DNA of 63,432 nucleotides, counting the filler, from Dimargaris cristalligena (taxonomy: Eukaryota): assembly GCA_003614675.1 (NCBI GenBank). It is 5 parts of 5 records of this genome, joined end to end, with 100 filler letters (N's around TTAATTAATTAA, not from the genome) between each part and the next. Parts side by side here need not be neighbours in the genome. Positions count along the whole stretch, not along the records: positions 1 to 12,678 come from ML003033.1; positions 12,779 to 25,388 come from ML003035.1; positions 25,489 to 38,093 come from ML003036.1; positions 38,194 to 50,785 come from ML003037.1; positions 50,886 to 63,432 come from ML003038.1. One strand, given 5' to 3'. A model generated the notes under the pieces. That model searched no databases and was not told the DNA's origin. It saw only the letters and a program-made list of their open reading frames with translations. Within the stretch, counting starts at the first letter, position 1. Every line of letters begins with the position of its first letter. Below, one piece after another: positions 11,812-55,063 of the stretch. Both the position numbers and the translations under genes were made by a program.

Positions 11812-12392
11812 TGTTGCCCAGGTTAACCACTCTTAGTCCTTCAAGAGTCCTGAGGATAGGCTTCCAATGGTAGGCAGGGCTTAGGCTCAGCCAAGCAGGC
11901 TATTAGTATCAGGTACAGGCATAGTACTAACTAATAAAGGCTAAGTATAGGTATAGGCAAGGGATATGCAGTGGGCACACTTACTAGTCAGTATGAGGGA
12001 AGTGAGTGTATATAGAGTTTATTGGGGTAAATTAGGGGTAAGGATAAGCTAAGGAATCTAACTAGTCCTAATGGGACTTGGTTATATATATGCAGGGGTA
12101 ACTCCAGAGGGAGGTTCCAAGGGAAGAATACTACTAAAGCTAGGGGATAGGTAAATAGGCCAACTAGATGGCCACTAGTATCCAGAAAACTCTGATGGTA
12201 ACTGGAAGAGTCTTTAGATTAGCACTTGAGTGATTAGTACAAAGAGGTAGAGTCCAAAAAGAGAAGGGTTATATGATATAAGATGATCCCATAGTACTGG
12301 GGGTAATTATGGGAAGGTTAATATGGCACTATAAGGCCTAATAGGGATAGACACTAAGGCATCCAGATTAAGGAGGATTAAGTAGTCTAACA
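11812..12392 (-). mobile_element. Solo LTR, family A copy 1 (~580 bp)
   Basis: TG...CA termini. Homologous to 38748-39296 (same orientation) and 54341-55063 (inverted). TATA-like and AATAAA signals read on the minus strand. Essentially CpG-free. No clear TSD. Confidence 0.8.
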
Positions 12393-12442
12393 GGTAGGTA
12401 GTAAGGAGCTATATATTCAGGATGGAAGTTCAAAAAAAAAAG

Positions 12443-12678
12443 GTGAGGTATCTATCAGACTATCTAATCTGCCTTAATCCAGACATATTAGTATATGTCT
12501 GTAAAGAACTGAACTCAAATCCTTGAAAACTGAACTTTATTTGAAAAGATAGATAATAAAAGGGAAAGGTGATGATAGACTTGCTGTTCCAAGAGGTGGC
12601 AGCAAGGGGGAGTATTTATACTTGAAAGAGGAAGCCTAAATGAAAAGATAGATGAATAATAGAGAAAGGGAGAGAAGG
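12443..12678 (-). mobile_element. Possible second LTR/retroelement end fragment running into the gap
   Basis: On the minus strand: TATAAATA, then AATAAA, then ...CCTCA followed by a T10 run. CpG-free. No second copy in the window. Confidence 0.3.
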
Positions 12679-13526
12679 NNNNNNNNNNNNNNNNNNNNNN
12701 NNNNNNNNNNNNNNNNNNNNNNTTAATTAATTAANNNNNNNNNNNNNNNNNNNNNNNNNNNNNNNNNNNNNNNNNNNNCTAATTACCTATATATGGACAG
12801 TGGTTTCAATTAAAAGAGTAAAAATAAATAGGATAATGCCAAATACTACTATAGCCGTTTGGCTATATCATAATACTTTCTTGTTGTGCAACAGTGAGAA
12901 AATACTGAAAATGAAAGTTTAAATAGTAATAAACATCTGGTAAAAATCGGCAAAAGAATCAGTTATCTTAAAGGCAAGAACCAGGGTGTCAAAGTCTGCT
13001 TTATTAGTGATGGGTGATTACCCCCTTATTTATATGTCGGGAAATAAATCAGGGGGTTAGGGTATTTAAGGGTGGCGGAAAGTAGTAGCTGGTCTTAATA
13101 CCATTATTGGAATAACTACTGGTGGTCCTGGGTCACTTGATGTTATTGGCTGGGAATGTTGGGGACGTTGGTGGCATTGCTGGTTTTGATTGAGTTTCAA
13201 ATGAGTTTGTTCTAATAAACTCGGTGGCTTAGCTATTGGGGAGGTCATGGGAACATTCAGTACTTGTGGGTTGGGGATTCTTGCAGGACGACTGGGGGAA
13301 TCACCAGACCGGTCCTGAGGACGTCCTGGTGACCTGGGCCTGGGAATTAGTGCCACCAAAGTTTGTGGTTCTTAGGGAGGTGGCACAGCATGTTCCACCC
13401 ACTTTTTTCAGCTTTTATAAGAGACCCTTAGCTATTCCCCCCCTCCCTGCCCATCTGCGACCTCAATGGCCCCATCCATCCATCCAAAACCCTGACTACC
13501 CATCCCCTTATACTCACAATACATTG

Positions 13527-14506
13527 ATGGTAACTTGCAATAGTAGCCAGCCCCCCAATCTATCCATCCTAGCTTTACAACAGGAATTCCTCCAAATCCT
13601 TGCTACTCAAAGTACCAAACTTACCAAGCAGTTTGCATCCTAAATCACAGACCAGTAGGCCTAAATAGATACCTGCCTAGCTAGTTATGATGACCTCCTT
13701 ACCTGTTTATCCCTTATTAAGGCTTAATGTGACTCTGCCCACCAAGCCCTTGCTACATCCAAGGCTAAGAACAAAGTGCTTACTGCCCAGATTACCTCCC
13801 TTATGGCCTGTACCCCCAGTCCCAACTGCCCCAAATCCCCATCCCTCAGTCCCCAGCCTGAACTAACTTATACCTCCCAGGTAGCTAAGCCTGCCCCACT
13901 CACTGGCCCTCCAGGCCCCCGCCATACCACTATTAATACCCACTACCCACCTACCAATAGCCACTTAGCAGCAGCCACCCATGCATTCCAACTCCCCACT
14001 GGCCCACAAGGCTATGAGTATATCATTATCCCCCATGGCCATAAAATGTCCTATACAGAAGCCTGCCATAGCCTTCATGTCCTTGGTATTGACACTGCCC
14101 ACATCCTAGATATTATCTTCCCAGCCCATAACCATGCAGCCCTACTGGTACACTAATAGTACTCCCTAACCCTCCGTGCCACCCTTAGGTCTGCTAAGGC
14201 CACCCCAATTGAAGACTTTGAATTCTGGGACCCTAAACACCTTGCTGACCCCAAATTTAATATTAAGTCTGATACTACTAAGCATATTATTGCTATGAAG
14301 ATACATCATGATTGCTGTATCTGCTCACTTATATTTCTGAGTACTAATCATCCCCATGTTGCTACTGCTATTGGCTACTTCTTTGCTGAACAGAGCTGGA
14401 TTTCCACCTCTAATATCCCCCCAGCTATGCTAATCCCTCTAAACACCCCCACCCAACTAATGGTGACTCTGACCAGGATCCTATAGATGACCCCATGCAA
14501 GAATGA
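13527..14506 (+). pseudogene. LINE ORF1 remnant (coiled coil + conserved C-terminal domain)
   Basis: GYEYIIIP...SLHVLGIDTAHILDIIFPA...LLVH and DPKHLADPKF resemble ORF1 proteins of zygomycete LINEs (recalled, not searched). Multiple in-frame stops. Confidence 0.7.
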
Positions 14507-17500
14507 GTCCCCTTAGAATAGCCTTATGGAATGCCTGCTCCCTCTCCACAGTTAAAGCCCAGGATACCCTCCACCACACCTCCCTCTTTGACATAATCTT
14601 TATTACTGAAACTTGGCTTCTACCCCCTAAACACCTACACACCCCATGGACCCAATACCACTAATATGGTCTACCTACCTCCAACTAGCAGCTTGGTCAT
14701 ATGGGTTTTTGTGCCCTTGTCAATCCCTCACTTAATATCCCTATTATTAACCTCAACCTTACCTCCCCTCTCTGCCTCTGCCTTTCCCTTGGCTCTTTCC
14801 AAATTATATGCGTCTATATCCCCCCCTTCTCCCATCCAAGACATTTATTTCTACCCTATTCTCCCTTCCCCTTACCCCAAATACTATTCTCTGTGGGGAC
14901 TTTAACTCCCAGCATAAACAACTTACTAGGGACCACTGCCAAAATACCCTTGGTATAGCCCTCCATGAATAGATTACCACTACTACCCTGGAAGGCCTAC
15001 CCAGACCAGTACCATTGACCTGTTTATATGTAATTTTGAACTGACTCTACTTCCTTAAATATCCATAAGGGCTTAACACTTGACTCTGACCATGCTATTT
15101 TGATCCTTATTTTTTCCCCTCCCCCCTTCTCTATTCCTCCCCCCCTACTAGTACCCCTCACAAATGGCACCTTCATAGACTTGCAAATGAGAAACACTGC
15201 CTCCACTATATCTTCTCTTTTACCATGGTCAGCACCCCTCCTGAATCAGCTACTATCCCTAATTACTAACCCCCCACCCCTAGCCCCTGATATCCACCAG
15301 CTCACTCTTATACTCAATAGTTGTATTTATTCTGCATTAGATAGCTCAGTTGGCCATTGGGGGCCACATATACCCTTTTCTAAGCCCTGGTGGACACCCC
15401 ACCTTACCTCTGCTATACAACTTTGGGACCACCTCTATAAGCAGTGGCACTGGGCTAGCGGTATTAACATAATAGTTAAATGGGCCACATACTAATTGGC
15501 ACAAAGAAAATTTCATAATGCTGTTTACTCCCATCAGCAGCTGTCCTGGCATCAATTCTGTACCTCCCTTGAAAAAACCCCCCAGTCAGCTATCTCCTAT
15601 ACCAGCTGCCTGAATTGCTATCACCAAGCACAGCCCTCATTCACCCATCAGGATGGCCCTCTAACTACCACCAATGTTATGGCTGCCCATTTAGCCCAGA
15701 CATATGATGTGAAATACCTCCCTTCCCCCTGTCCCCCTCCTATCCCATCCAGTGATACTCCATATATACTACCTAATTCACACCTATTACCATTGGCTGT
15801 GGAAGACAATATCTGCTGCCTACCCTATAGGAAGGCCCCTGGTCCTAACCATATTAAGGCTGAAATGCTTTGGTCAATTACCAGCCCTCTCTCACTTATC
15901 CTCTCTGCTATTTTCAGCCTCTGCTGGTAGTGGGCCTATACCTCCCCTCTCTGGAAAACAGCTCATGTTTTCCCCATCTTTAAAAATGGTGATAGGTCTA
16001 ATCCAGCCAATTATCGGCCAATCTCCCTTACATCACACCTCTGAAAATTATTTGAATACTGCCTAACCTCCTTTCTTAATATATTTACACCACCTCTGGA
16101 TCCTGCCCAAGGTGGTTTTTAGCCCCAATGGGGTGTACTTGACCAGGCACTATGCCTCCATGAGCTTATACAGGCTCACTACAATACCCATCACCATTTT
16201 CCTACTATTGCATTCCTTGATATTAAGGCAGCCTATGATACAGTAGACTACTCAATAATTTGGGAGGCTATCTCTAGTGTATCCCTGACCCCTGGATTTC
16301 TCCCCTTACTATCTTATATCTTTGATGATATATTTATATCAGTCTCTCTTCAATGCTTGATTTCAGAGCCTTTCAGGCCAAAAACAGGGGTCCTACAGGG
16401 CTCAGTTCTGAGCCCCCAACTTTATTCAATCTTTATTAATAGCCTACCCATCCTTCTTTGGCAGGCTGCACACCCATTTACACCCTCTATCCCCCCCCAT
16501 AGTGGGTATAATCCCCACCCTCTAGCTATTAATTCACTACTCTATGTGGACAATGTTACCATTTTTGGCTCTCCCAATGATGTTGCTAATATGCTGGCCC
16601 TTGCTGAGAGGTACTCAATCATATACAGATACCACTGGAGCCCCTCTAAATGTGTACCCCTCACCACAAACCAGTGGCTCCACTTTAAGCAGTATGGAAC
16701 CCCTCTGACCCATTAAGAGGATTTTCCTTATTTGGGTATCCCATTTACATAAAAGGGGGTATCTCCTCCCCTTCTCCTGGCCCACACTACCAGCTGTGCA
16801 TACAACTGCATAAGGCTGCTTGCAGCTATGGGCTTGAAAAAGTCTGGCTTTAATACTACTCTATGTCTGCACCTATACACTTCTCTTATGCACCCTATTT
16901 TTGAGTATGGTATAGCCATATGCTCCCTTAATATTACCCAGACAAAAGCTCTAGAAAAAGCCCAAAACATCTGCCTGTGGCAGATTATTAGTGGCCAGGA
17001 TAGAACATCTACCCATATCCTCCACCATATTTATGGCTTTCCATCAATGGCCCACTGGGCCCAGGTTCTCACTGCCAAATACTGACATTGGGTGGCCCTT
17101 TTACCATAGGATAGCCTCCTCACACTCCTCCAGCCAATCCTCCACAAATCCTACCTTTTATCCACCCTCTGCCAATCCTCCCTCTTCCTCTCTATCCCCC
17201 CATCCCCCTCTAATACTGATATCAGAGATGCCATACTGAATACCCGCCTTACTGAAGTTGATTTGCTACAAAGTACTCAGGCCCTCATGAAAGGCTGCTA
17301 CCAATTTATTGGCAAAGACCCTATCACTTACCTGCCTGCCACTAGCACTGAATGCCACCATCTGATTTTCTGGTGTATGGGGTGGTTACCAGGTCACTAT
17401 GAGGATTGCCCATGTGGCATTGGCCACACATCCCAAAATCACCTCCCAAAATGCCCCCTCATCCCCTGCCTGCTATTTGCTGCACTACCATCCCCCACAA

Positions 17501-17658
17501 TAGATACTAACCCTATTGATTTTGCCATCTCCTCCCTGCCAACATCCCCCCGCTACCCCTGTTGCTTTTGGGTCCCCCTCCTTAAAATACTATTGTATAT
17601 TGCCTGTATATGTTGCCTTGATATCATACTTCCCCCAGAGGACTCAGGCTCAATTTAG
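14503..17658 (+). pseudogene. LINE ORF2 remnant: AP endonuclease + reverse transcriptase
   Basis: APE motifs LWNA, ITETW, GDFN, SDH. RT motifs KAPGPN, NYRPISL, QGGF, FLDIKAAYD, GVLQGSVLSP, YVDNV (from YADDV), YLGIPF. C-terminal Cys/His cluster CPCG...HLPKC. Confidence 0.92.
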
Positions 17659-18944
17659 TCTACTACCACTGCAGTTAACCCTCCAGTCATATAGTTCTGA
17701 GCTATAGCTCCACCCCCCCTTTTTTTTCTCTCCTTTTTTTTCTTTTCCTTTTACTATGGCTCAAATTTGATAGTCACTGGTAGGCAAAGTGTGGATAGAG
17801 TAATGTGGCAATCTGTGGCAATATCCCTTTAAAAGTAACCCCTGGATGTCCACCTCTATTTCACCACTGACCCTGCCACCCCCCTCTGTTAAAGTTTTAC
17901 TGCAAGGTCCTGCTACTAAGTAGTAGTGGCCAATGCTTTCTTTTATTTGATTCCCCCAGGGTGGGGATTTAAAATGCCATATAGGTGTTACTCCTTGCAA
18001 CCCTGTATAAATAAATCCCTATTATTCTTCTGACATATGGTCACAACTGGAAAATTTTAAAAGAATTGGATTTTATCAGTTATTTTTATAATTTGATTTG
18101 TTTGACATTTAGTGATACTGATTCACTGTATAGGTCAGTTAGAATTCCAGTGGGTAGCCCAGATATGCCCTACATTTAGGAGCGACAGCTAGTTTGCCCT
18201 ATATTACCAGTCGAGGTGCACTAATGGTAAAAAATAAATGTATACGTCCTTCACATAGATACTATATTTCACCATTACTGAATGTCACTAGCAGCATCCT
18301 TCGATTTAGCCATATTCCAACTGAGTAATTAATTGGACTGGTTAATAAGGGAATACGAGTATAGTTCAACAATACTGGGTTGCAACACTATTGATATTTT
18401 TGAGGGAATGTCGATTGGCTTTTGAACTTTTATCAGATGAGCCCAATTCAGCACACCAATTTATCGCTATTTAACTGGGATGGATTTCCCCTTATCTGCA
18501 GAGGGTCTAATATCGACCGGTAAAGAAGATGGGCCCAGTATATTGGCCATATTCCTGGCCTGTGGTGATAGAGAATATATCACAGTGACCGGCTGGTTGA
18601 CCTTTAAGATATCCTCATCTCTTCTCACCTTGGGCTGCGACAACACCTTTCACTGAGGGTGCATTATTATATTGGCGCTCGAAATATGCACACGGGGGAA
18701 AGGGCTTATTCCCACTGATAGTGAATGGGAAGAGGGAATCACTATGGCGTTCGCTGCTTGTGTGGGCTAGGTTAACCGAGTATTTTCACAGATGCAGTCA
18801 CGTCGCTATGCTTAACTTTCTTGGTCTCAATCGCAGCTTTCGCTCTTATTACATTCAATCCCAAGTTCAAACATTTCTCGGCAGCTCTCTTCCTATTTTC
18901 TTTTCTATTTTCCTCCAAGTACTCTAATCTCTCCCAAGCTCACC

Positions 18945-20078
18945 ATGGCATCCGCAGTTCGTAAAGCGCTGAACATTGCCCTTGTTCAAATGAAAGTAAC
19001 GGCCAATAAGGCGACTAATTTGCAAGTTGCTCGGGAGAAAGTCCTGGCAGCCGGCCAAAATGGAGCCGATGTGGTCGTATTGCCTGTAAGCTACCTTTTA
19101 CGGCATATTATTTAGCTCTCGTAGGGTGAAAACCCGGTCTTCTAAGCAGACCCGAATTCCCGGTATACCTGCTTTCGAAAACTCGACGCCCTCTACCCTT
19201 TTGTCTAACCTTAGGTGATACTTGTAGCCCTCTTCTCGCCCCTTAACTAACAATTATAAATCGTATTCGATCATTGTACTGGATAAATTTGTACTGTCCC
19301 CATTCAGGAATGTTTCAACTCCCCCTACGGAGTTCAGCATTTTGAGCAATACGCTGAGCCCATCGAGGGCACCGCCCCTGGTGAGAGTATCCGGGCCCTT
19401 TCGGCCATGGCTAAAGACGCCCAAGTCTATCTCGTCGGCGGTACTATTCCCGAGGTTGTAGTGAAAGAAGGGGGCGCGGATTCGCCATCCCAGCCCCAAC
19501 GCCAACTCTACAATACGTGTCCCATCTTCAACCGGGCCGGCCACCTACTTGCCACCCACCGCAAAGTGCACCTGTTCGACATTGACGTGCCCGGCAAAAT
19601 GACGTTCCGAGAAAGCTCGGTTCTGCACGCCGGCAACCATTTGACCCAATTCACCACCGAATGGGGTCCCATCGGGGTCGGTATTTGCTACGACCTGCGT
19701 TTCCCGGAGATGGCCATGATTGCGGCCCGTCGGGGCTGCATCGCCATGATTTACCCGGCCGCGTTCAACATTACCACAGGCCCTGTGTTCTTTGAACTTT
19801 TGCAGCGGGCCCGGGCCGTTGATAACCTTTTTTTCGTAGCCACTTGTTCGCCCGCCCGGGCCGACCCCGAGGCGATTCGAAATGAAGGAGTCTATCCCGC
19901 TTGGGGCCACTCGTCCGTCGTTGGTCCGGTAGGCGAGGTGATTGCAACTTGCGATCACGAAGATACCACTGTGGTGGCTCAATTGGATCTGGATAGATTG
20001 GACGAGGCCCGTCGGTTCTATCCTATTTATCAGCAGCGCCGGTTTGACTTGTACCCTGATGTGGCCCAGGGGCTCTAG
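18945..20078 (+). CDS. NIT3: Omega-amidase, carbon-nitrogen hydrolase family (Nit2/Nit3-like). Exons 18945-19085 and 19308-20078
   Basis: Catalytic E-K-C triad in VVLP|ECFNSPYG, HRKVHLFDIDVPG and GICYDLRFPE. Also AFNITTGP and WGHS. Phase-0 GTAAGC...CAG intron. Confidence 0.93.
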
Positions 20079-20810
20079 TCAGGCACCGGAAACTCCATGC
20101 GGCTGCATCGCCTACACTTAATCCAAATGTTCTGCTAGCATATATTGCAGTCTGAGCCTAGGGGTTGGAATAAATAAAATCCCCTCAAGCATTTGTAAAC
20201 AATAGAATCCGAGCAACTCCCTTACGACTAAGTAAATGGGGATGGGGTGGTCACGGTTTAGGGCGATTGGGGGTATACATTGGAGCACGGGGTATTGGCC
20301 ACTGTAATCCAATTGAGGATGTTTTCATACTATGTTGTTTAATTGAAGGATTGAGTGGGCGGAAATCGGTAGATAGTTAAAGGAAAAAGATACACCCGAG
20401 TTTGATAGGTTCTTTGACACATAGTTGCATTACATAAATGGATCGGGGCGCCAGAGAAGGCTAGGGGCTGAAAAGCGACGAGATGGTTCCAATTAGTATA
20501 CAGAAAAAAAGGTATTGACGAAGGTAGATAATACAGCGTAGAGAAATAGAGACGGGGAAATGGGGGAGGTGTGTAAAGAATCATTCATCCGTAAGAGCAA
20601 AAACAATATGTAGGGATAAAACAATAGGAAGACTTGATCGTTTCCTTAACTCAGGCCAAGTCGGGGTGATGGAGATTGAGCTGCCATATACAGTACTGCA
20701 AGCGGTTGCGGCGTATGGCAATTATAATAAAAACGCACAGAAACTAGAATAGTACCCAATGGCCGTTGGGCCCATTGGGAACAGTGACGTAGTCTAGGCG
20801 CAGATGGGTT

Positions 20811-22043
20811 CTATTCGCTGACTTCATCCGAAGTGTCAGCTGGTTTGCCAAAGGGTGGGGGAACCACGCCGTTGTAGACGAAAGTCCCGTATATGAGAAT
20901 GGCGAAGCCAGCGACCTGCAAGAGCTGGAAATGTTCCCAACCGAGGGAAACACTAGCCATCCAGATGAACAGGGTGCGGCAGGTATCGATGGTGGAGCGG
21001 GAGGTGGCGCTGAGGGAGCGGGTGACGGACAAGCCAAACCAGTTGAAGAAGGCGATGGAGAACATAATGGCAATGGAGGTAGTCCAAACGCCAGAGTTAT
21101 CGACAATTTGGTGGAAGCCGTCGTACATGTCGAAGTAGCCGCCCGGGTGCGTGCGGCCAATGACCCCATGCAGAAGTGGGATGCCCATGGCTACGGTACC
21201 TAAGCCGAAAATACCTTCCAGGCCCACCGCCCGCATGGGCACCACATGGAACTTGTGCATAATTTTCTCTTCCACCACGAACTGGGCGGCGGTGAAAATC
21301 TGGGCCATCAACACCATACCCACTCCGAGCAGGGACCGTTCCGAAAATTCCACCCCGGCTACTGTGATACCAATCGGGTCGGCGGCGTTGGGAACAGGGG
21401 CCGGCTGGTACGGGAAAAGCACACTGCTCATCCCCACCGTACCCACCCCAATCATAATAAGCAGTAGCGAACCCCACTGGAAGGACTGGAGCCGGTGTTT
21501 CAGGAAAATAACGGAGAAGATGCCCGAGAAAATCACCACGGCACCGCGCAGCATCTGGTAAACGGAAGCGGAAGTGTAGAACAGGCCCACGTTCATGAGG
21601 GTGGTGCCACAGATATCGAAGGCGGCCGGAAGCCACATGAGGAGGGTGCGGAGCCCGGTGAGCGGGCGGGTGTCGGCCAGCGTGGCTGGGAGAGCGTCGG
21701 GGTTACCGGCCATGGCCAGAACGCCCGCTTCGCCCCCAATGATATCTTCGATATCGTCGCCATCGCCCGGGGCCGCGGCCGTCAGCAGCTCCTGGTAACC
21801 TTGGCGCTTCCGGCGGTAATTGGTCCAGAAGATGTTGAGGTAAAACACGATAAGACAGAGGGTTTCGCCAGCGAACATGTTGAGGGTCTGCCAAGTGGGC
21901 TGCTCAAACAGCTGGCGCCGGCTGGGGTCGGGGTCCTCGCAGTTGCCCACGCACTCCATATCCTGCAACTTAGTCAGCAGGGTGTTGAGGGTGCCAGTGA
22001 CCAGCATGCCACTCACCAAAACCACGGTTTGCGACGTTTTCAT
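20811..22043 (-). CDS. SLC35F6-like drug/metabolite (nucleotide-sugar transporter superfamily) membrane protein, 410 aa
   Basis: About 10 hydrophobic segments. Motifs MLVTGTLNTL, FEQPTWQTLNMFAGE, PAAFDICGTTLMNVGL, ASVYQMLRG, QFVVEEK, VGLEGIFG, SIAFFNWFGLSVT..LSATSRSTIDTCRT. Confidence 0.92.
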   Translation of the reverse strand: MKTSQTVVLVSGMLVTGTLNTLLTKLQDMECVGNCEDPDPSRRQLFEQPTWQTLNMFAGETLCLIVFYLNIFWTNYRRKRQGYQELLTAAAPGDGDDIEDIIGGEAGVLAMAGNPDALPATLADTRPLTGLRTLLMWLPAAFDICGTTLMNVGLFYTSASVYQMLRGAVVIFSGIFSVIFLKHRLQSFQWGSLLLIMIGVGTVGMSSVLFPYQPAPVPNAADPIGITVAGVEFSERSLLGVGMVLMAQIFTAAQFVVEEKIMHKFHVVPMRAVGLEGIFGLGTVAMGIPLLHGVIGRTHPGGYFDMYDGFHQIVDNSGVWTTSIAIMFSIAFFNWFGLSVTRSLSATSRSTIDTCRTLFIWMASVSLGWEHFQLLQVAGFAILIYGTFVYNGVVPPPFGKPADTSDEVSE

Positions 22044-25000
22044 GACGTCGGCCTATGGGGTTGAGGAAGGAGGCGGGGAGGGTCTCGGGATTAGGTTGGC
22101 AGGGGCAATGTGCTGTAGACGACCGGATACGTAGGCGTCAAGTCAAATACGGGTGGTGAAATAAGGGGTAAATATAGCGGCAATGGAGTACTGTAATGGG
22201 GGCTGGCGGAGGGAAGAGATAATAGAAACGGGGAGGGGGAATGCGTCGCTGGAATATAAAGAACAAGAGGACAAAAGGGTACAGAGATATATGCAGTGTA
22301 TTGTAGCGGGGGATTAAAGACGGATAAGCGGGGGAGAGGATACCAACCTGCCAGGGTGCTAGTATAATCATCACAACTAAGGGAGAGGGGGGGGATAGGG
22401 CCAATGTGGCTGGCGAGCCCAGGCTGGTCGGACACGGGGCTCCTCAGGGCCTCTTGTGTAGCCAATAGCCATCTGCTAATAAGGCCAATGACTCCCCTTC
22501 ACCCATACCATTCACTCGGCGCCTCCCGTTCTTTTCTCCGTCAGCTAGGTCACGCGGACCTGGTCACCAGTCACAGAAGAGATAGATGGTGAATTAGGTG
22601 GCAAGGCGAATACACGGGCCCTTGGGACAATCTTCCCATTAGTACTATGGAACCTTGTCAGCCTGGAATGGCGGACCACCCACCCTGCTCATACCACAGT
22701 CATCGATAACGAACAGTCGCTTGAACCCCCCCCACCCAATACACACCAGCCTAGTGACAAGGGGCACCCGTCGCATCATCAGCCGAGTAAAACCACCATT
22801 GCACTGAGTGGTATAGGGGTCAGCTGACCCTATTCTAGGCTGTTGAACTTGTGAAGGGGCGGTGTGGTGGGCTCTGCTTTCCCACCATAGATGGGCCAGA
22901 TTACCCGACCAGTTCCCGCTGCACGTAGCAATTATACCCAAGGGCTTGATGCAAAAGGCGGGAAAAGTAGGACCATCCTGTCGATCTGACCCCGTGTGCT
23001 ACCCTTTACCTTAATCCACGGCCACCGTTGTTCACTTCCGGCGGTTTGGCTAAAATTCGGCCCTTAAGGGCATAATTAAAGGACATCCCTTTGGAACGCA
23101 TTAAAGTTGCACCAGAGTGTGGCAGACATTCCAGGTAGTTGTTAGGAGGGTTGCTAAATAAGACACCCGGTTGCTATTAAGGCTGGGCCAGCATATACTT
23201 AGTCACCAGTAAAAGCTCGAAATGTGCCATTTGTGACTATTCTAGATTTTCCGCAATGGCTATACCATAACCCACCCTGTGGGCATACTCAAGTAGGCGG
23301 ATAATTGGGCTGAATGAATATACCACTGTAGTGCTGTATGTAACCATGCTGGATTAATCTATTTTACACACTTCACAGTATATTAATTTCTTGGTGAAAT
23401 GCCACGTTCCGGTATATACAACTAATCAGAAACCTAGGGATACTACTGCTTATAAGCCGCCTTGACGTTCCAATAAAAAGAGGCCATTCGTTGCGTTTAT
23501 TTACAGATGATACACTAAATAAACTAAAAAAAGGTATTCCAACTCGCAAGCGAAGTGTACAGGCATGGGCTGTAGGTCTATTTTCACAGGCGCGCCCAAA
23601 AGTGCGACACAGTGCGTTGAACAATTCTTGAAAGCTACGGATGCGTTGTATTTACAAGGTCTACTTGAGTGTATCCTCTGTTATATCACTGGGACATATG
23701 GATTTCGGACCTTTCCTCTAGTAACCGTTATTCGATGCGGATGGCTGAAACCAATCCTAGGCTGAACTGGTGAATGTTCAGTTGAGTGGTGTAAAAAGCC
23801 ACAGGTTGAAAAATGAACTATCTGGCCCCTATACCACCCAGGAACGAGACTATCATTGCCATTAGGAGTTGGAATCGTCGTCGGAATTGTTGTCCGCCAA
23901 ATCGGGGCAGACAGCGGCGGTGTAAACATCGGGCAAGGGCATAAACATTTTAGGCGAGTCTGAAACCTTTAGATGAAAATAATGAGAAAGATGGATATTG
24001 TAAGGCAATTTTGGATATGGGAATGTGAATAGGGATGCAAATGGAGCCAATTGAGTTGTGATATGGTTTTTGAAGTCGACGGAGCAGCGCTGGCTTCTTA
24101 TATACCCCAAACCTTGGCGACTCTACCAATTTATCTATTTAATAACTGACAGCATCAATACGCAAACGAGGAAGGTGGTGTGCTGTCGAGTTATCCACCG
24201 TAAAAAAATACAGATTCTAAATTGCAAAGTAAATTATTTTGACAAGAGGATCTTGTTGGCGAGTACTTTAACCTGCAGCCATAACATATCTTAACCGTTA
24301 CCCAAAATAGTTTGAAATTACGATAAAATCTGTCACACTACCCTATATTACCAATTAGGCGGATGACAGAGTTGTTGGTGCACAGTTACTAGACCTCATG
24401 GTTTAACGAGACAGTTTCTTTCGCAACATCAATTGATTCCGCGAACATGTTAGAATCCGATGTTCTCGCCAATAACTTTCTGGTTGTGATGTACTCTTGG
24501 GCGGATTGTTTAGGCTATTCTCTATTTCAACACCCGTTCTCGATAGTAGAGATCGCGATTAACGATCAGGCCGCTACGGTTTGGATTCGATGGACATAGT
24601 CACAATCCCGGAACTGGGTTCACGATCAATCTAAGATCACATGGAATGCTTTGATGACTGTAGACTACCTCGTACGGTCATTTTAAATGATGGCTTTTAT
24701 TCGCATTAAAAATGGTTCCCTTTTGCGGCGCCACCTCGAATTCGACCGATTGAATTTATACAATCAACAAGATCGAATCACAGCCATTCTGTATTCGACT
24801 TTCCCAGCGAACACTATTCAATTTAGACCCTGATCTACATCTTCACTTTGTCTTGGCGACTAACTTAAATTGAAGTGGGACATATATTGTCCGAATCACC
24901 TCGGGGACTTCCCCAAAAGTTGATCTCATACACAAGAGTTAAGCTGCAGAGTGTAGTGTTGTGGTCGCAATTAATACCACAAGGTAATATGGCCTAATAA

Positions 25001-25490
25001 CCTTATCAGGGCCAACTGGAGCAGCCTCAGTCTAGTGGGAAAAACTAACTAACTAAGGGAAACACGCACTCAGCGGGGACAATTCTTATCTGATCTTCAG
25101 ATAGGGACAATTAGGGCAACCGGGGATCACACAGGGATCCTTCTAATGTATGGCAGATAAGGCACAGTGAATGGGCTTGGGCCAAATGGACGATAGGAAT
25201 AGAACAAGACCGGTGGATCGAAAATAACTGACTGGTAAACTTATACTTGGTGTCAAAAAACTGCCTATTTATTAGGAGAATACCTGATGGGTATTTATAT
25301 GAAAATGTAATAAAAAAGGCCACCAATGTTGGTGGCTCTGAGAGTACTAAGTCTGGGGATATGCCCCAGACTCCTATAACTAAATGATNNNNNNNNNNNN
25401 NNNNNNNNNNNNNNNNNNNNNNNNNNNNNNNNTTAATTAATTAANNNNNNNNNNNNNNNNNNNNNNNNNNNNNNNNNNNNNNNNNNNNCC

Positions 25491-26273
25491 TATCCCCACC
25501 GCCGTGCCTCGGGCGGCGATGGCGGTGACGGTGGCAATGGTGGTAATGGCGGTAACAGCAACGGCCGTGGTAACGGAGGCGACGGTGGTGATGGTGGTAA
25601 CGGCGGTAATGGCGGCAATAGCTTTAACCGTGCCTCTGGTGGCAATGGCGGCGACGGTGGTAATGGTGGTAATGGTGGCAATAGCAACGGCCGCGGTAAT
25701 GGAGGTGACGGTGGTGATGGTGGTAACGGTGGTAATGGAGGTAATAGCTTCAACCGTGCCTCTGGCGGCAACGGCGGTGACGGTGGTAATGGTGGTAATG
25801 GCGGTAACAGCAATGGTCGGGGAAATGGCGGTGACGGCGGTGATGGCGGCAATGGTGGTAATGGTGGAAACAGCTTTAACCGCGCCTCTGGTGGCAACGG
25901 TGGTGACGGTGGTAACGGCGGCAATGGTGGCAATAGCAACGGCCGCGGTAACGGAGGCGACGGTGGTGATGGCGGTAACGGTGGTAATGGTGGCAACAAC
26001 TTTGGTCGTCGCGACGGTGGAAACGGTGGTGACGGTGGTAATGGCGGCAATGGCGGCAATAGCAACGGCCGCGGTAACGGGGGGGACGGTGGTGACGGTG
26101 GCAATGGTGGCAACGGAGGCAATAGCTTCGGCCGCAGCTCTGGCGGTGACGGTGGCGACGGTGGCAACGGCGGTAATGGCGGTAATGGCGGCAATAGCAA
26201 TGGCCGTGGTAACGGTGGTGATGGTGGTGACGGCGGTAATGGCGGCAACGGTGGAAACAGTTTCCGTCGCTAA
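25491..26273 (+). CDS. Gly/Asn/Asp-rich tandem-repeat protein, 5'-truncated by the gap (260 aa visible)
   Basis: Open frame from the gap to TAA at 26271-26273: YPHRRAS, then 12 blocks of (GGD/GGN)5 (one has 6 triplets) separated by SNGRGN / SFNRAS-type linkers, ending SFRR. Variation falls mostly at third codon positions of this frame. Confidence 0.85.
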
Positions 26274-38000: not shown

Positions 38001-38747
38001 CTTCTTTTATATATTTCATTTTCTACACGACTCCGTTGTCTTCAACTGCCTGTCCTCGCTGGTTCTCGTATTCCCCGCCCGACTCCGACCTTANNNNNNN
38101 NNNNNNNNNNNNNNNNNNNNNNNNNNNNNNNNNNNNNTTAATTAATTAANNNNNNNNNNNNNNNNNNNNNNNNNNNNNNNNNNNNNNNNNNNNGAGAGGC
38201 TGTTCTTCAGGATGGTTGATGCTATACACCCTTCTGGTAAATTAGGGGTCAAGTGTGCCAACTGTGCTGCCATAGGCAGTTGGGCAGAGGCTATATAAGC
38301 ACTAGTACCTGTTACTAATCTAAGAAGTGGCCATACTTTGGATGGATTCAAGATCCCTGGATGATTGATAAGTCATTTCCATGGGAACAGTCCAGGGCTG
38401 AGAGAGTTATTTTATTTCCTTATACTTGCTGATTCTCTTTTCCTTCAGCTTTCCAAATCATACTTCCATTTATTAGAAATATAAATATGATAGTAAATAC
38501 AAGTACCTTCAATTGCAACTATAAAGATTTTAAAGAAGAGAGAAAGAACCACAAGGGGCAAGGCTAGATGCCCACAGTTAGTTTTATTGAATTAGATAAT
38601 AGCAGTAATAATGATTAGGACAAAGTCCCAGGTATAGAATGATATAGTAACAGCTAGAATATAGTCCTGAGTATAGAACAATCCAATCACAGAGATGGAA
38701 TCAGTGGGACAGGGGAATGAATTTCCAACACCATTTACTTTTCCATC

Positions 38748-39296
38748 TGTTACCCAAGTTAACCACTCTTAGTCCATCAAGAGTCTCGGGGGTAAGCTTC
38801 TAACAATAGGCAGGGCTTAGACTTGGCTAAGTGGGCTATTAGCATTAGGGTGGGAGTAGTACTAACTAATAAAAGATATGTGCAGGCTTAATGCAAGGGA
38901 TGTGCAGTAGGCACACTTACTGGTTAATACAGTGGGTGAGCATATAAAGAGTTTATTAGGAGTAAACTATGGGGGTAAGAAAATTAACTGACTTGCTAAC
39001 TGGTCCCAGAGGGGCCTGGCTATTTATACACAGGGACTGCTCATAACAAGAGGTCCCAAGGAGAATACAATAGGACTAATTATAAGTAGGGAAGGAGGCT
39101 GGCTGGGTGGCCTTACTTCTAGAAGACTTTCATGGGAACTAGGGGTTGTTAGATTAGCTGGCAGAGTGTCACATGTGAAGTGTTGAGGCCAGTCCTAGGA
39201 TGTTAGATGGTAAAGGAGGGCAGTATGGTGCTATAAGGTAGGATAGAATGGGACAATTGGTACTCCCATATTTAGGTGGAATTAGGAGGGCTGACA
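38748..39296 (-). mobile_element. Solo LTR, family A copy 2 (more diverged)
   Basis: TGTTAC...TGACA termini. First ~300 bp align with 11812-12392. Flanks CCATC and CTGTC fit a mutated 5-bp TSD. Confidence 0.8.
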
Positions 39297-39883
39297 CTGT
39301 CTATTATTAATGAAGTTATAGGTCATCCAAATCAATGGTGACTTTAACCCATGATGATTGACCATTTCATATTACTACTTTTATACTATTGACTATCCTT
39401 TATGAGTGGGGCTTAGGAATAACTAGCCTCCAGTGGTTTCCTTCTTAGAATTACACTATACAATTACTTAGTATGAATTCTTTTTATTAGTTTTATCAAT
39501 ATCTGACATGAAGGAGAATTAGGAAGACTGTATCTTCCAACCTTCCAATTTCTATAATTTGCTTCCCTTTAAATTACTATAATTTAGCCAGTAGGTCAAT
39601 TTATTATATATACCTTAGTAGTGTCCCCTCAGTTAAAGGGACAAGTTAGTTTCAAGACAAACAAATAAATATCTGTTTTAACTTCACTAGATAATACTGA
39701 CAATTAACCTTTTATCCAGTTTTATTATTACTAATTATTTTATTACCACTACTCCGATTTGTTAATTTTTATTTACTTAGCTCGAATTTATGGTATCCCC
39801 GAGTACCAAATTGATTATACTATTTGATTATAATATTTTTAGTTTATTATATTTTTCTTATCAACTGACAATGCAAGACAGCC

Positions 39884-40162
39884 ATGTATGATACAATGGA
39901 TGACCAGAAGATCAGTGGCAACTTCCCCAAGGTCACCTTGGTCTCAACCCCCTCAAACCCAGTAAAGTCCAACCCTCCACACTATATGACAAAATATGGT
40001 GACCCATCCAGTGGAAAGAAACCAGAGGTTCCCCCTCCTGCTGACACTCCCAAAGACAAACCAGTGGAGCCCCTTAAATGGTTGGCAACACACTTAACAC
40101 CAAGGCCTATTGGCACTGGCTCTTTCATATTAAATATACCAAATTTACCTAATATAGCTTGA
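39884..40162 (+). pseudogene. Possible exon or gene remnant, Pro/Lys-rich 92 aa
   Basis: GC-richer open frame in AT-rich DNA, preceded by CTGAC...CAG. CpG-free. No recognisable domain. Confidence 0.25.
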
Positions 40163-49062: not shown

Positions 49063-49878
49063 TTACTGGGACTTCTTCTGCTTCTCAATGTGTTCATCGA
49101 GCTCCTTCTTGGTGCTATCGATACTCTCCTGGGCCTTGGCGAGTTTCTCCTTAAGCTGCTGGATCTTGAGCATCTCCTATAGTATCAAAATATTCAGAAA
49201 ATGAGGAGTGTCGGATGATGGCATTAATTCCATAGACAGCTAGAAAGGGGTAAATAACGTAAATTTGGGAAGCAATCTTTTTTGCCAAGGCGAACGAGGG
49301 TCCGTCGAAGCGATGCCAGCCACCTAGGTGTTATTTGAGCGATTCCGGATTAATGATCCATGGAAAAACCTACCTGTTCGTGAATGTACTTGTTTTCAAT
49401 GGCGTTCTCCTATTAATATTAAAAAGCGCAATATAAGCCAAATCGATGAGGGTTATTACAACAAGGGTTAGCTAAAGTGACCAAACGATCCCAGTACCGG
49501 GTGATGTGTAACGTGGATATCCCAGAAGCTGGAAGGAAGTGGTGTATGAACAATAAGGCGTTTAGGCCCCTGGCAGCAGAACCCCACGTCCAGTTAGAAT
49601 AGTCCAACCGGCCCTGGGGACCAAAGACCAGCCATCCTGTAGAATGGACCCTATAAAGACCATGATCAAGCAGGCTATAGGACCAGAACAAAGCCAAGCG
49701 AATAGAAAGCCCATGTATGATTGTGGGGTCTTACTTTTTCGCTGAAGGCACCGCCACCACGGGGAATAGCGCCCTCGGTGTAGAAGGCCTTCTGAACGGC
49801 CAGGGGGCGGGCAATCGCGAAGCGGGCGCGGAAGGCAGCGGACAGGAGCATGGAGGTAGTCTTGGTGGAAATGGCCAT
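49063..49878 (-). CDS. INH1: Mitochondrial F1Fo-ATPase inhibitor (IF1/Inh1/Stf1-like). Exons 49878-49735, 49409-49374, 49176-49063
   Basis: Arg-rich presequence, then YTEGAIPRGGGAFSEK|ENAIENKYIHEQ|EMLKIQQLKEKL coiled coil. Two phase-0 GT-AG introns. The ORF track shows only exon 1. Confidence 0.9.
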
Positions 49879-50517
49879 GGTGGAGTTTATTGAAGGGTGA
49901 AGGAAGGATGAGATGTGAATAAAGACAGGAATTACTGGATAGATGTTTAAAAGAAAGAGAGAGGGAGGTGGTGCATGTATAGCTTGGGTTTCAAATCAAG
50001 CGGGACATGGGGGGGAAGTCCACATGCGGAAGAATCGCGCAGTGGTGGTATTTTGGGGGTATCCGGGGCGTGACTCTCTTCCCCCCACCCGCCCATTACT
50101 ATAGGGGAGGGTGAGCACTGACTCTGGCTGACTGACGTAGTCCTCCCCCCCACCACCACGAGCAGAAGGGTTCTCGGCCTTTGCTTGGCTGGATGAAACC
50201 AACTGACACCAACAGTCCCGCCCAAGCCGGGATGGGAGTTTGAGTCCATCGCCGTAATCATTTAATTCGCCAAGTGGAACAATATAATTCCCATCAACCG
50301 CATATATAGTTTTGAGCGGGGTTGGAAGGAGCATCCTCGAATCATAATGGATCATCTATACGCATACCACCACCGCCAAGTCAGTGCCATCCACCCATTT
50401 TCGAGGGCCTAAAGAGCCATCTTCACTATAGTATGCCGCAGCAGCTAGGCACGGGAGGAGAGCTGTGACTTTGCCTCTTTGTCAAAGAAACTTGCTTTCC
50501 CTAACAATAGTAATTGT

Positions 50518-51485
50518 ATTATCGTTGATAGATGCCGTCGACGTTTTGTTATTTATTGGCAATACTTATTACGCCAATTGGACAAGTCCACGGTCTGCAA
50601 TAACCGAAAGTCGTCGTGCACATGTGTAAAGAACACGGCAGAGACAAATTTTGATAGTAAAAATAGAATAAACTAATAGGGTCGGATGGTAGGAAGGAAT
50701 AAAAGAAGGAGAAAGATAGAGAAACAAATTTTCGCATGGAAATTTTTCCTTTCTACTTCGGGGAAAGTAATATTTTTACGGAAAANNNNNNNNNNNNNNN
50801 NNNNNNNNNNNNNNNNNNNNNNNNNNNNNTTAATTAATTAANNNNNNNNNNNNNNNNNNNNNNNNNNNNNNNNNNNNNNNNNNNNACCAAAAGGTCGCCT
50901 GCCTTAGATTCACTTTAAATAAAACTCTACTTCATCTAAGCCAAACAGGTACCTTGCTTTTGTTTGCTTCATTTTTAAGTAGCAAAATTTTTCACTACTC
51001 ATTTTCGAACTGTTCATGACTATCCATCCCTCTTTTTTGACCATTCAGGCACCTGCAAGACTACCCAAAACCACCCCCCGACTGTCTGACCCATTTACCG
51101 GAATAATGATTCTGTGGACATTCTGATGATCCATTCAACTTTCCGCCAATTTTGTGAGCATTTCGAAATTCATTTTTAAAAAAACTCATTATGTTAATAG
51201 AGGGGAAAGAAAAAAAATTCTGTAAAAATATTACTATCCCCAGAGTAGAAAGGAAAAAGTTTCCCTGCAAAAATTTGTTTCTCTATCTTTCTCCTTCTTT
51301 TATTCCTTCCTACCATCTGACCCTATTAGTTTATTCTATTTTTACTATCAAAATGTGTCTTTGCTGTGTTCTTTACACAGGTGCATGATGACTTTTCGGT
51401 TATTGCAGACCGTAGACTTATCCAATTGGCATAATAAGCATTGCCAATAAATAGCAAAATGTCAACAGCATCTATCAATGATAAT
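50518..51485. repeat. Long inverted repeat (arms 50518-50785 and ~51218-51485) around a gap; DNA-transposon/foldback-like
   Basis: About 268-bp arms align as reverse complements. The left arm keeps its CpGs and the right arm has lost most. Confidence 0.85.
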
Positions 51486-51883
51486 TAGTTAGCAACCAGA
51501 TTATGACAGCAATTAGAGTGAGTTGGGGTGGCTAAAGCCCACGTGTCCCTTGGCACTCCTCCTGTTAGTGCCATTGTACATTCTTCACTAATCATGTGCC
51601 TTCAACTACCATTTCCTTATCAGGACAATCTAATATAGTAAATTCCCTCCTTGGTATGTACAAAGTGGCCTGTTATACGGACTCTACCTGTGTGCTGTGT
51701 TGTATGACATTTATTGAATCCCTGCTATTTGTTAGTTATCACCAAACTAGCTACAGCAGCTGTACTGCACATCCCGCAACACCCCTCCCATTAATCTCAC
51801 TGTTCTAGAAAAACAACAGTAGCAACAACAGCAATTGTCCATTAGCTGTGTTAATTGCTGACATGGCTCAAAAATGAGTTTTT

Positions 51884-53570
51884 TCAGAGAAAATATTCAA
51901 CTATCCAACAGCAGTAAGTGATTCCAAGTAGGAGTAATAATGGCAAGTCATATTTCCCTTTAACGACGTCCATGGCCTGGCTGAATAAAGGCCAGTTCTT
52001 CCTATAAATTACACCCACGGCTCTTTTTACCAGCTTGAATGACAGGACATCGGTCCGAACACTGTGGTCCAGGTACTGGTTGGCCTCCAAGGTAATTCCA
52101 AGCATATTATCCGGTACCTGAACTCTCAATTCGCCTTTCTGAGTGAGAGTAAACCAGCAACTACCTAGATAGCGGTACCAACAGTTGGTGAGATCGACAT
52201 TGTAATTATTCGGGCTGACTTGCACTCCCCAGGTATTGGCCAGGAATCAGGCGGCATTGGCCAAGTCTCGGGCAGTGAGGCACTCAATAAACAGCTGCTT
52301 TTGACTTTCCAAAGTATAGCCGGCCTGCTGGTCAGCACCATTGAAGATTTCCACCATAACCAGCAGTTCATTCAGCATCTCCACCCTAGTTGAAACCCCG
52401 TGGATGGCAGCAAGTGCTAGGGAAAGGTAAGTCACACTACCGGCCACATGGCTAATGCAGTGTAGGCCATTCCCCCTGACCTCCGGCGGTACTGGACACA
52501 GAAGAGCCCTGAAGAACTTATCCAACTCATCCGCCTATTCGCAGTAGTGGAGGTACCAGGTTATCATGGGAATGGCCAGCTCAATCGATCCCCCCACTGG
52601 CATACAGCCAGCTGAAGGGCATCCACCAACTTGGGGCTTAGTTGAAGAGTGGTCCCAAAATGGATATCTAAGGTGAATTGTGGTTCATGTAACAGGCTAA
52701 AGTGGGTTGAGGTGGAGCGGTAAATCCGCTTCAAATACACCAAGGTGTCATCATTGGCATAGGGCACTAAAGGGAATAGTTGTCTTAGTTGAGGGGCTGA
52801 TAAGGCAGGAACACTGCCTACTCTCCACATTTCCTTTTGTAAAATTGGAGTGAGCCGATTTGCGCTTATCAGCTTGAAAAATTCAAGAGGCCGGTGGATC
52901 ATGGGGTTCTCACCATCAACAATGGACTCATCCAAGGTGTCTTGGTTTAAAGGGATATCCTGGAATTCACTCAGAAAACTCCCCATTATCTGAGCCCAGG
53001 ACTCGAGGCAGGCTAGTGAATAAAATTCGACCGTAAATTGCAGGATCTGTTGAGCCGAATTCTCCAAGATTCGTTGGTCAAAGGTTTCCACCGCCTTGAA
53101 TGCTATTGAAATACCCTCTAATAATTTGTTTATCTACCAGGTATACTTAGTAATACACAATCCAATGTCCCCCACACACAAACCCCAATAGCACGCCGGT
53201 TAGACAACTGGTAAATACATCTCTACATGATTGGTAGCCTCGATGGACCACAAGGAAGAAATAGGTATAGTGTATTTTCGCCCTAGGGACAGGAATATGA
53301 GTACAATTTGAAAGGAGGTCGAGATAGTGGGGGGAAATAACTGACTCGATTAGTAATAGCAAGATGGCTCTGGAGTGGGTTCCAGTATATATAAGTGGCT
53401 TTTTGGGCAAAATCACCAATGGACAGACGGTCTCCAATGGCTACTCGGAGTTTGTTGGGTAACAGCTGGTCAATGAGGTCTCTTAGCATCTCATTGGTTG
53501 TTTCGGTGGCCCTTTCAAGAGTAGTGAAGGCAAAAAAGACCAGAAGGGCTGAAGAAGTACTTGTTTTCAT
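51884..53570 (-). pseudogene. Disrupted gene for a putative secreted protein of unknown family
   Basis: TATA box at ~53675, signal-peptide-like start MKTSTSSALLVFFAFTTL, then collinear same-strand ORF pieces (53570-53283, 53091-52564, 52525-52247, 52225-51884) broken by stops and frameshifts. Confidence 0.5.
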
Positions 53571-54340
53571 GTTGGTCAAAGGGTCTAACAAAAATGAAAT
53601 AGGGAGGCCATAGGTGTAAACAAGAGCATTACAGAGTGTAAGTTTTTGGCTGAAATTCTGTGCAGGTAATACAGTATTTATATAAAGTAGACCACACCAA
53701 TGGCCATTTACTTAGTAGAGAGAGTGCCTTGGTACAAAAATGTTGGTCCAGCACTGAACATATCAGAAGGAATCACTGGCTTTGGCATTGAATCCAAAAG
53801 CAACTATTATATGATTTATTGAACCACTATCATGTTATAATGAACCTCCAGTATAGATGATAATGGGGGAAAGAGGCCAGCCCCTGTTCCCTTGTGCAGT
53901 CTTCAATGGTTACTCCACCCAAACTACTTCATGAATTCGTAATAGTTGTTTAAGAACAAGCTGTGGTTATATTCATCTTTCCCGTGACCTGCTAAGCCAC
54001 AGTGGTGGCTCCCATGTGGTCCATTTGAACCCCTTAACCACTTGGCTAAGAACACTAGTTTGGGGTATCCCATAGCTACCTAGTTGATTACCACTGGGAA
54101 AATGGGATGAAGACCAACTACTGATAAGCTTACAGTGACAGGCTGCCATTGGGAATGTCAGGTTAAATATGCTACAGTTGACTGTGTTGTTACAGCTTAC
54201 TAAATTATTCAAATATAGAGTATTCTGTTACTTGCCAATATATTTTAAAAATGTGACAGTAGAAGAACTACATTAGGGATATATAGATGTGATATGATAG
54301 TGAGACAAGTAAAAATATCAAACAAATGGCCATAACCACC

Positions 54341-55063
54341 TGTTAGACCATCTAATTCACCTTAAATTGACTGGCTTAGTGTACATCCCTATTAGGCCTT
54401 ATAGTTCTATATTATCCTTCCCATGGTCACCCCTAGTACTATAGGATCACCCTATATCATATAACCCTTCCCCTTCTGGACTCCACCTCTTTACACTAAT
54501 CACTCAAGTACTAGTCCAAAGACTCTTCCAGTTACCAGTAAAATATGGGTAAAGTTCAACTTGGTTGTATAAGGGTTTAACTAATATGTGTATGGGAAAA
54601 TTGGTGAGATGTTTATTTTCAACTAGTAGTACTTGCCTTATCAAATGGATTTTTCATTATACAGCCTTGTTGAACTACACCCATATTCTGGATACTAACA
54701 ACTGTCTGGTTGGCCTATTTACCTATACCTTAGTCTTAGTAGTATCCTTCCCTTAGGACCTCCCTCTGGAGTTATCCCTACATATATATAACTGGGCCCT
54801 ATTAGGACCAGTTAGATTCCTTAGCTTATTCTTACCCCTTAGTTTACCCCCAATAACCTCTATATATACTCACTCCCCCTTATACTAACTAGTAAGTATA
54901 CTTACTACACATCCCTTCTATATACCCACTATAGACTTTATTAGTTACTCCTGTACCTGTACCTAATGCTAGCAGCCTACTTAGCTAAACCTAAGCCCCA
55001 TCTACCATTAGAAGCCTATCCTCAGGACTCTTAATAGACTAAGAGTAGTTAACCCAGGCAACA
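54341..55063 (+). mobile_element. Solo LTR, family A copy 3, with nested MITE
   Basis: TGTTAG...GCAACA. Reverse complement of 11812-12392 over its full length, apart from a ~140-bp insertion. Confidence 0.85.
54546..54683. mobile_element. 138-bp MITE (Tc1/mariner-type TA target)
   Basis: Absent from LTR copy 1. Imperfect ~27-bp TIRs TGGGTAAAGTTCAACTTGGTTGTATAA / TTATACAGCCTTGTTGAACTACACCCA. TA on both sides. Confidence 0.8.

Follow-up and report, generated by a model that had tools for sequence, protein, structure and literature searches.

Can the repeats of a fungus outside the lineages with established repeat-induced point mutation (RIP) lose their CpG dinucleotides by a process that also attacks CpA? 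The question is raised by a stretch of 63,432 nucleotides (the window) from the genome of Dimargaris cristalligena (assembly GCA_003614675.1), in which three copies of a repeat resembling a long terminal repeat (LTR) read CA, TG or TA at many aligned sites. A preliminary description had traced these sites to ancestral CpGs, held their TA end-products to exceed what simple deamination predicts, and proposed a repeat-directed mutator in a lineage without established RIP. The host belongs to the Dimargaritales (Zoopagomycota) and does lie outside Dikarya. We report here that the CG-to-TA double hits are real, far above background and sequential, and that the pattern is probably a methylation-linked decay of repeats that resembles RIP in its CpA component; RIP itself is not demonstrated. 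The three copies are the following:

11812..12392, plus strand: 581-bp LTR-like copy 1 of subfamily A, with TG...CA ends, 0 CpG, without target-site duplication
38748..39296, plus strand: solo LTR copy 2, subfamily B, 1 CpG
54341..55063, minus strand: LTR-like copy 3 of subfamily A, interrupted near 54538-54685 by an insert of about 140 bp, 0 CpG, without target-site duplication

The LTR-like family and its copies in the window

The 15-mers quoted in the preliminary description were located at 11885 (plus strand), 38821 (plus strand) and 54976-54990 (minus strand), and the copies align there as described. Copies 1, 2 and 3 contain 0, 1 and 0 CpG, respectively, against 23-25 expected, and the genes of the window retain theirs (338, 184 and 223 observed versus 349, 171 and 222 expected).

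Genome searches for this repeat of about 580 bp gave 983 and 887 first-look candidates, 40 of which were scored in each search. Clustering by transversions placed the resulting 79 distinct copies in subfamilies A (39 copies, including copies 1 and 3), B (six, including copy 2) and C (20), and the 14 copies outside these groups were left out of the analysis. Copy 2 differs from copies 1 and 3 by about 15% transversions, compared with 2-8% within subfamily A. Because copy 2 comes from another subfamily, copies 1-3 alone are weak evidence; with mixed subfamilies and few sites, they give twice the log-likelihood difference (2dlnL) as 9 against a CpA rate equal to background.

All three copies had been called solo LTRs. 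Members of the family start with TG, end with CA and have short inverted termini, and a target-site duplication is seen in the less decayed subfamily C (15 of the 17 scored copies share 4-5 of 5 flank bases) and in subfamily B (4/6 allowing transitions), but in only 4 of the 39 copies of subfamily A (6 allowing transitions). The designation holds for copy 2, where the 5-bp flanks, CCATC (38743-38747) and CTGTC (39297-39301), mismatch in the way expected from the decay of a CpG; no such duplication borders copies 1 and 3. The 150-bp flanks of the 39 subfamily-A copies hold no common internal sequence, and no search aimed at a gag/pol parent was made. Recombination among loci may have reshuffled old copies of subfamily A. 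Two or three LTR copies often lie within 1-2 kb of one another, some of them head to head (L024 (C267), L010, L016, L018 and L027).

Sequential decay of CpG and CpA sites

Alignment columns were classed by their base mix across copies, the CpA class being counted on both strands. At the 32 CpG-class sites of the 39 subfamily-A copies (1201 cells), 9 cells read CG, 453 TG, 403 CA and 336 TA. A two-step model in which the second hit occurs at the background rate predicts 4.5% TA (8.1% with 13 outlier columns), far from the 28.0% observed; the same model run at the CpA rate predicts 29.5%. The excess over simple deamination is thus confirmed, and TA does not match ordinary background transition. 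That background is the change at CpC/CpT, 5.6% without the 13 columns exceeding 45% and about 10% with them; T>C changes amount to about 2% and transversions to 1.7%, while TpA makes up 35.8% at the 39 CpA-class sites. Copy 1 shows 10 TG, 13 CA and 8 TA at the CpG-class sites and TpA at 10 of 39 CpA sites, and copy 3 shows 12, 9 and 10, with TpA at 21 of 38. Three ancestral CpGs had been read into the quoted example. Positions 11888 and 11896 are indeed CpG-class, but 11892 is an original CpA (20 CA, 10 TA and no TG or CG in 30 subfamily-A copies). In the 13 outlying CpC/CpT-class columns T makes up 50-87% and linkage is slight; 12 of these columns lie on the G-rich strand as G/A.

A threshold-free mixture model gave per-strand rates of 3.05 for CpG, 0.414 for CpA (bootstrap 0.36-0.48) and 0.062 for CpC/CpT (0.050-0.069), and hence a CpA/background ratio of 6.7 (bootstrap 5.8-8.9). 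The second, CpA-directed activity suspected at the outset is therefore borne out, with the order CpG > CpA > CpC/CpT (3.05 : 0.41 : 0.06). All 39 CpA-class columns contain at least 13% TpA, compared with a median of 5% for CpC/CpT columns (Mann-Whitney p 1e-17); the medians for CpA, CpC and CpT are 0.36, 0.05 and 0.05, CpC being equal to CpT. Since every CpA column reaches this level and the columns are unlinked across copies (r2 0.0264 versus a null of 0.0263), shared ancestry is an unlikely cause of the CpA excess. Across the 39 copies, those with a higher CpA load also tend to have more TA at their CpG-class sites (rho 0.61).

The result was reproduced in 22 further subfamily-A copies (of 29 found) outside the first set, picked by their likeness to copy 3 and covering 375 columns. 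In this replicate, 267 of 522 CpA were changed, against a background of 6.8%, and TA occupied 191/504 cells (37.9%), where 5.7% is expected from the background rate and 44.8% from the CpA rate. Subfamily C (665 cells: 47 CG, 289 TG, 250 CA, 79 TA) had about 20-24% change at CpA and 4.7% at background sites. The fitted CpA/background ratio was 3.5 in C and 3.6 in B. The CpG:CpA rate ratio was 7.4, 7.6 and 7.2 in the three LTR subfamilies, which differ in load, and 6.0 in the replicate.

Mutation of both strands at once, the other route to TA that had been suggested, is not supported by these fits. The one-step CG>TA rate is 0 in three of the four sets, and in the fourth it does not reach significance (2dlnL 0.63). 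A model that assigns 9% of CpG losses to one-step events is rejected for subfamily A, the replicate and subfamily C (2dlnL 8.0, 6.8 and 13.9), though not for B (2.9). Because the fitted one-step rate is 0, TA arises by two sequential hits.

Clustered, strand-coordinated mutation of a copy is a feature of classical RIP. No strand-coordinated runs were detected here by TG:CA dispersion (p 0.20, 0.68 and 0.82), a neighbour test (p 0.29 and 0.84) or runs statistics (z 0.1-0.6), an absence that many weak rounds could produce by masking. TG accounts for 0.53-0.54 of outcomes, with balanced strands and independent hits within copies. No base preference was found 5' of CpA or at +2, nor was any TpCpG-type or CHG-type preference.

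Further repeats of the window, including a long interspersed nuclear element (LINE), provide comparisons outside the LTR-like family:

12881..13390, plus strand: separate repeat of about 500 bp, copy with 8 CpG remaining, direct reference for CG>TA counts
13233..17658, plus strand: decayed LINE-like element, 11 CpG versus 208 expected, reverse transcriptase (PF00078) at 16123-16713
50518..50785, plus strand: CpG-intact copy (14 CpG) of a 268-bp repeat, direct reference
51218..51485, minus strand: decayed copy of the 268-bp repeat (L115), 2/14 CpG left (5 TG, 7 CA), 2 CpA>TpA changes

The LINE shows the same CpA bias as the LTR copies. When only changes confined to a single one of the three copies are counted, 115 of 1014 CpA and 85 of 2667 CpC/CpT are hit; the fitted CpA/background ratio is 3.1 and the CpG:CpA rate ratio 4.9. 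One copy (L079, on C672; 3.7 kb) is 85% identical to the window copy and keeps 77 CpG, with CpA hit in 12/310, whereas its sisters (13233-17658 in the window, and L078) keep 6 and 10 CpG and have CpA hit in 59/361 and 44/343. The transversion branch of L079 (31) lies between those of the other two (61 and 14), and L079 may be a later insertion. At the CpGs visible in L079, TA fills 10 of 143 cells, where singleton rates expect 4.1 (p 0.01) and the CpA rate 14.2, a weak result on which pairwise rates give no decision.

The tests against the ~500-bp and 268-bp references require no inference of the ancestral state. At CpGs present in the window copy of the ~500-bp repeat, 10 of 133 cells in 18 other copies read TA, versus 2.6 expected; only this count was used, and a CpA rate of 20% in this family was discarded as inflated, the reference copy itself being decayed. 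In the 268-bp family the raw CpA count (76/548) was likewise set aside as pseudo-replication, most of the changes being shared subfamily sites. With six shared sites removed, comparison with the CpG-intact copy gave 13/472 CpA versus 6/1084 background changes (p 6e-4), in which some sharing is still possible. CpG loss is at most 2 in 17 of the 25 copies and greater in the other 8, and CpA changes are commoner in copies with CpG loss (8/151 versus 5/321, p 0.03). The intact copy is 99.6-100% identical to two further loci (L091 and L092), so this family moved recently. The intact and decayed window copies face one another across an assembly gap.

Around the repeats, the observed-to-expected ratio (o/e) of CpG climbs across a flank of about 1 kb, mostly unrelated between copies, from 0.03 through 0.09, 0.29, 0.44 and 0.61 to 0.72. 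Dinucleotide profiles of the flanks do not tell whether CpA decay extends beyond the repeats. CpG-normal intergenic DNA has a CpA o/e of 0.99 and a TpA o/e of 1.02. These results support confinement of the CpA-directed C>T activity to repeat-rich DNA, and one regional process ranking CpG over CpA fits the flank, LINE and 268-bp patterns. A composite RIP index in 1-kb bins is positive over copies 1 and 3 and negative over the LINE, and is a poor guide.

Several other features were seen in the window. An open frame at 25437-26273 encodes Gly/Asn/Asp-rich tandem units with a 126-bp period and no Pfam match; its units are about 75-83% alike and CpG is fully kept (82 versus 61 expected). Broken frames on the minus strand at 51884-53711 have a CpG o/e of about 0.4 and include a 188-aa piece without a Pfam match, and 10224-10540 shows weak self-complementarity (63% over 322 bp). 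In public runs, contig depth at 12781-13400 and 24990-25400 is 60-150x that of neighbouring single-copy DNA; young high-copy repeats are thus collapsed at contig ends. Comparison of four public runs over 12781-25400 revealed no usable between-isolate variation.

Probable methylation followed by deamination, and the alternatives

Searches of the genome with the PF00145 and TIGR00675 profiles found two cytosine methylase loci. One is a DNMT1-type gene on contig C729 (L063) that encodes RFD, BAH and methylase domains and is truncated within the catalytic domain, where the contig stops; the other is short and, judged from size and motifs, probably DNMT2-like. The closest relatives of a methylase of this genome come from Dimargaris, Tieghemiomyces and Dispira (55-57% identity), and the closest relative of the DNMT1-type gene matches DNMT1 structures at 1e-97, compared with 1e-26 for 9BAQ/9BAP, which we take to be DIM-2 structures. 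With a full-length DNMT1-type relative as query, the assembly yielded neither a further paralogue nor the remaining end of the C729 gene. No RID-like gene was found with the two profiles or this query, no RID query being used and the assembly being fragmented (2220 contigs); the same searches gave no DIM-2-like gene, and no query aimed at DNMT5 was made.

Given the rank of rates, the two-step order, the confinement to repeat blocks and the presence of this gene, we consider it somewhat probable that the decay reflects methylation of repeats, at CG much more than at CA, followed by deamination. The DNMT1-type enzyme of the host would methylate cytosines in repeat-rich blocks, strongly at CpG and to a lesser degree at CpA, and methylated cytosines would turn to thymine site by site over time, mostly by passive deamination with poor T:G repair. 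CpG would go first, to TpG or CpA; the product, a CpA on one strand, would take a second and slower hit to TpA. A CpG:CpA ratio that is steady across sets is what would be expected of a single process whose preference is constant. CpA might serve as second target in that it pairs with TpG, whose thymine methyl could mimic a hemimethylated CpG. Phycomyces and Linderina are reported to carry 5mC on their repeats (PMC11258239), and CpA/TpG has been described as intrinsically hemimethylated, an argument made for DNMT3 and methyl readers, not DNMT1 (PMC11514455).

Several points weigh against this explanation. The CpG rate of 3.05 compares with 0.029 for T>C (about 100-fold) and is about 50-fold over CpC/CpT. 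In mammals the excess is roughly tenfold, and a rate above this may point to enzyme help. Subfamily-A copies show mild overdispersion of CpA load (chi2 63.6, 38 df), and this load is unrelated to transversions (rho 0.003). In the 268-bp family, the association between CpG loss and flank CpG reaches only borderline strength (rho -0.39, p 0.053). In addition, mouse cells make non-CpG methylation only via Dnmt3a/3b, not Dnmt1 (PMC3386304), and fungi with only a Masc2/DNMT1-type gene gave CpG signatures alone (PMC4352252).

Some of these points would suit an active, RID-independent, RIP-like mutator, in which the DNMT1-type enzyme, or a partner missing from the assembly, would promote the deamination of CpG and CpA in repeats at a low dose per cycle. 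We regard this as possible but unlikely. The hundredfold CpG excess, a CpA rate about 19x the transversion level, the singling out of CpA with CpC equal to CpT, and the overdispersed CpA load all agree with it, and there is a precedent in the Dim2-dependent, mitotic, CA-specific C>T mutation of Zymoseptoria tritici (PMC8016269). However, Z. tritici spares CG, the main target here; strand runs and a DIM-2-like gene were not found; and a low-dose, non-processive enzyme and passive decay are not separable by sequence alone. A narrower version, in which the DNMT1-type maintenance methylase alone drives such a mutator in Zoopagomycota, acting on CpG and then on CpA via TpG mimicry, is doubtful; on that view, the preference for CpA seen in RIP would predate both Dikarya and RID.

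Classical RIP, in which a RID-type enzyme mutates CpA in each of two duplicated copies ahead of meiosis, with CpG methylation decay as a separate process, is very unlikely. CpA is its classical context, subfamily-A LTRs have a TpA o/e of 1.61 and a CpA o/e of 0.76, and a RID gene could be absent from, or overlooked in, an assembly in which the DNMT1 gene itself is incomplete. Nevertheless, the profile and full-length searches gave no RID-like match, the ratio of CpG to CpA rates is constant, as it need not be for two independent processes, and the CpG rate is 5-7.6x the CpA rate, so CpA is not the main context. The long, similar LINE copy L079 has escaped, unless it is a later insertion, strand runs are absent, and RID and RIP-like signatures are reported for ascomycetes only (PMC4352252, PMC12543289). 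The 268-bp family, being below the length threshold of about 400 bp given for RIP (PMC3318451), does not bear on such an escape. Of the repeat-directed mutator first proposed, the rank of CpG over CpA and the setting in repeat-rich DNA stand; RIP or a reading of homology does not follow from data with CpG favoured about 7:1, no runs, persisting CpG-intact copies and no RID-like gene.

Equally improbable is an origin of the CpA excess unconnected with repeats, in a mutation or repair bias acting across the whole genome or in old polymorphism of master elements. The comparison has no neutral unmethylated duplicate as control, the 13 highly mixed CpC/CpT columns of subfamily A lack clear linkage and so attest to unlinked polymorphism of masters, and shared sites dominate the raw CpA changes of the 268-bp family, all of which would suit it; against it stand the uniformly raised and unlinked CpA columns, the normal CpA and TpA of CpG-normal intergenic DNA, and a LINE copy that kept its CpA together with its CpG. 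A single event hitting both cytosines of the pair before repair is the least credible, for although TA is frequent at CpG-class sites and a share of up to about 5% is compatible with the fits, it leaves TA at original CpA sites unexplained, and young copies (22 TG, 33 CA, 1 TA) match the sequential order.

Comparison with known systems

Methylation followed by deamination, if correct, has consequences for how RIP is called. Surveys tie the CpA signature of fungal repeats to RID and ascomycetes: CpA signatures appear only in RID/Masc1 genomes, all of them ascomycetes, with CpG-only signatures in rusts and Microbotryum and CpG plus CpA in Tuber (PMC4352252), and RIP-like k-mer signatures are described as unique to ascomycetes in a panel that includes one Dimargaritales genome (PMC12543289). 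A 3-7 fold, alignment-based CpA excess in a Dimargaritales fungus in which only DNMT1 was found would break that link. If DNMT1-type methylation alone leaves a RIP-like CpA scar, RIP calls from TpA indices outside ascomycetes would be weakened; alternatively, a RIP-like mutator would predate Dikarya. Our literature search, with most subscription papers outside its reach, found no report of an alignment-based CpA signature in Dimargaritales.

The rusts and Microbotryum, with DNMT1/Masc2-type enzymes (PMC4352252, PMC8063080, PMC3318451), resemble the present case in near-total CpG loss from repeats, untouched genes, a DNMT1-type enzyme and a load rising with age. Their signature is CpG (often TpCpG) only, whereas here there is no 5' T preference and a clear second signature at CpA. 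Tuber melanosporum has the same rank of contexts, CpG-major and CpA-minor, and its authors favour methylation over RIP (PMC4352252); its transposons are methylated at about 80% of CG and 30% of non-CG sites (PMC4165359). Tuber is an ascomycete, however, and the CpA-signature genomes of PMC4352252 all have a RID/Masc1 gene, none of which was found here.

The Dim2 mutator of Z. tritici is alike in its methylase-linked CpA>TpA changes in repeats, proposed to occur without a premeiotic stage; more than 98% of its C>T changes fall at CA, CG is spared and the enzyme is DIM-2 (PMC8016269), while here CG is the main target and the enzyme is of the DNMT1-RFD type. RIP in Neurospora crassa and other Pezizomycotina shares C>T at CpA in repeated DNA on both strands and raised TpA; in the present pattern, by contrast, CpG is favoured over CpA about 7:1, strand-coordinated runs and a RID gene were not found, and long similar copies appear to escape. 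Within Zoopagomycota, a RIP-like signal has also been described for Entomophthorales such as Zoophthora radicans (PMC11105155). That signal consists of composition indices reported with their authors' caveats, whereas the signature described here comes from aligned copies and context-specific rates, and from another order.

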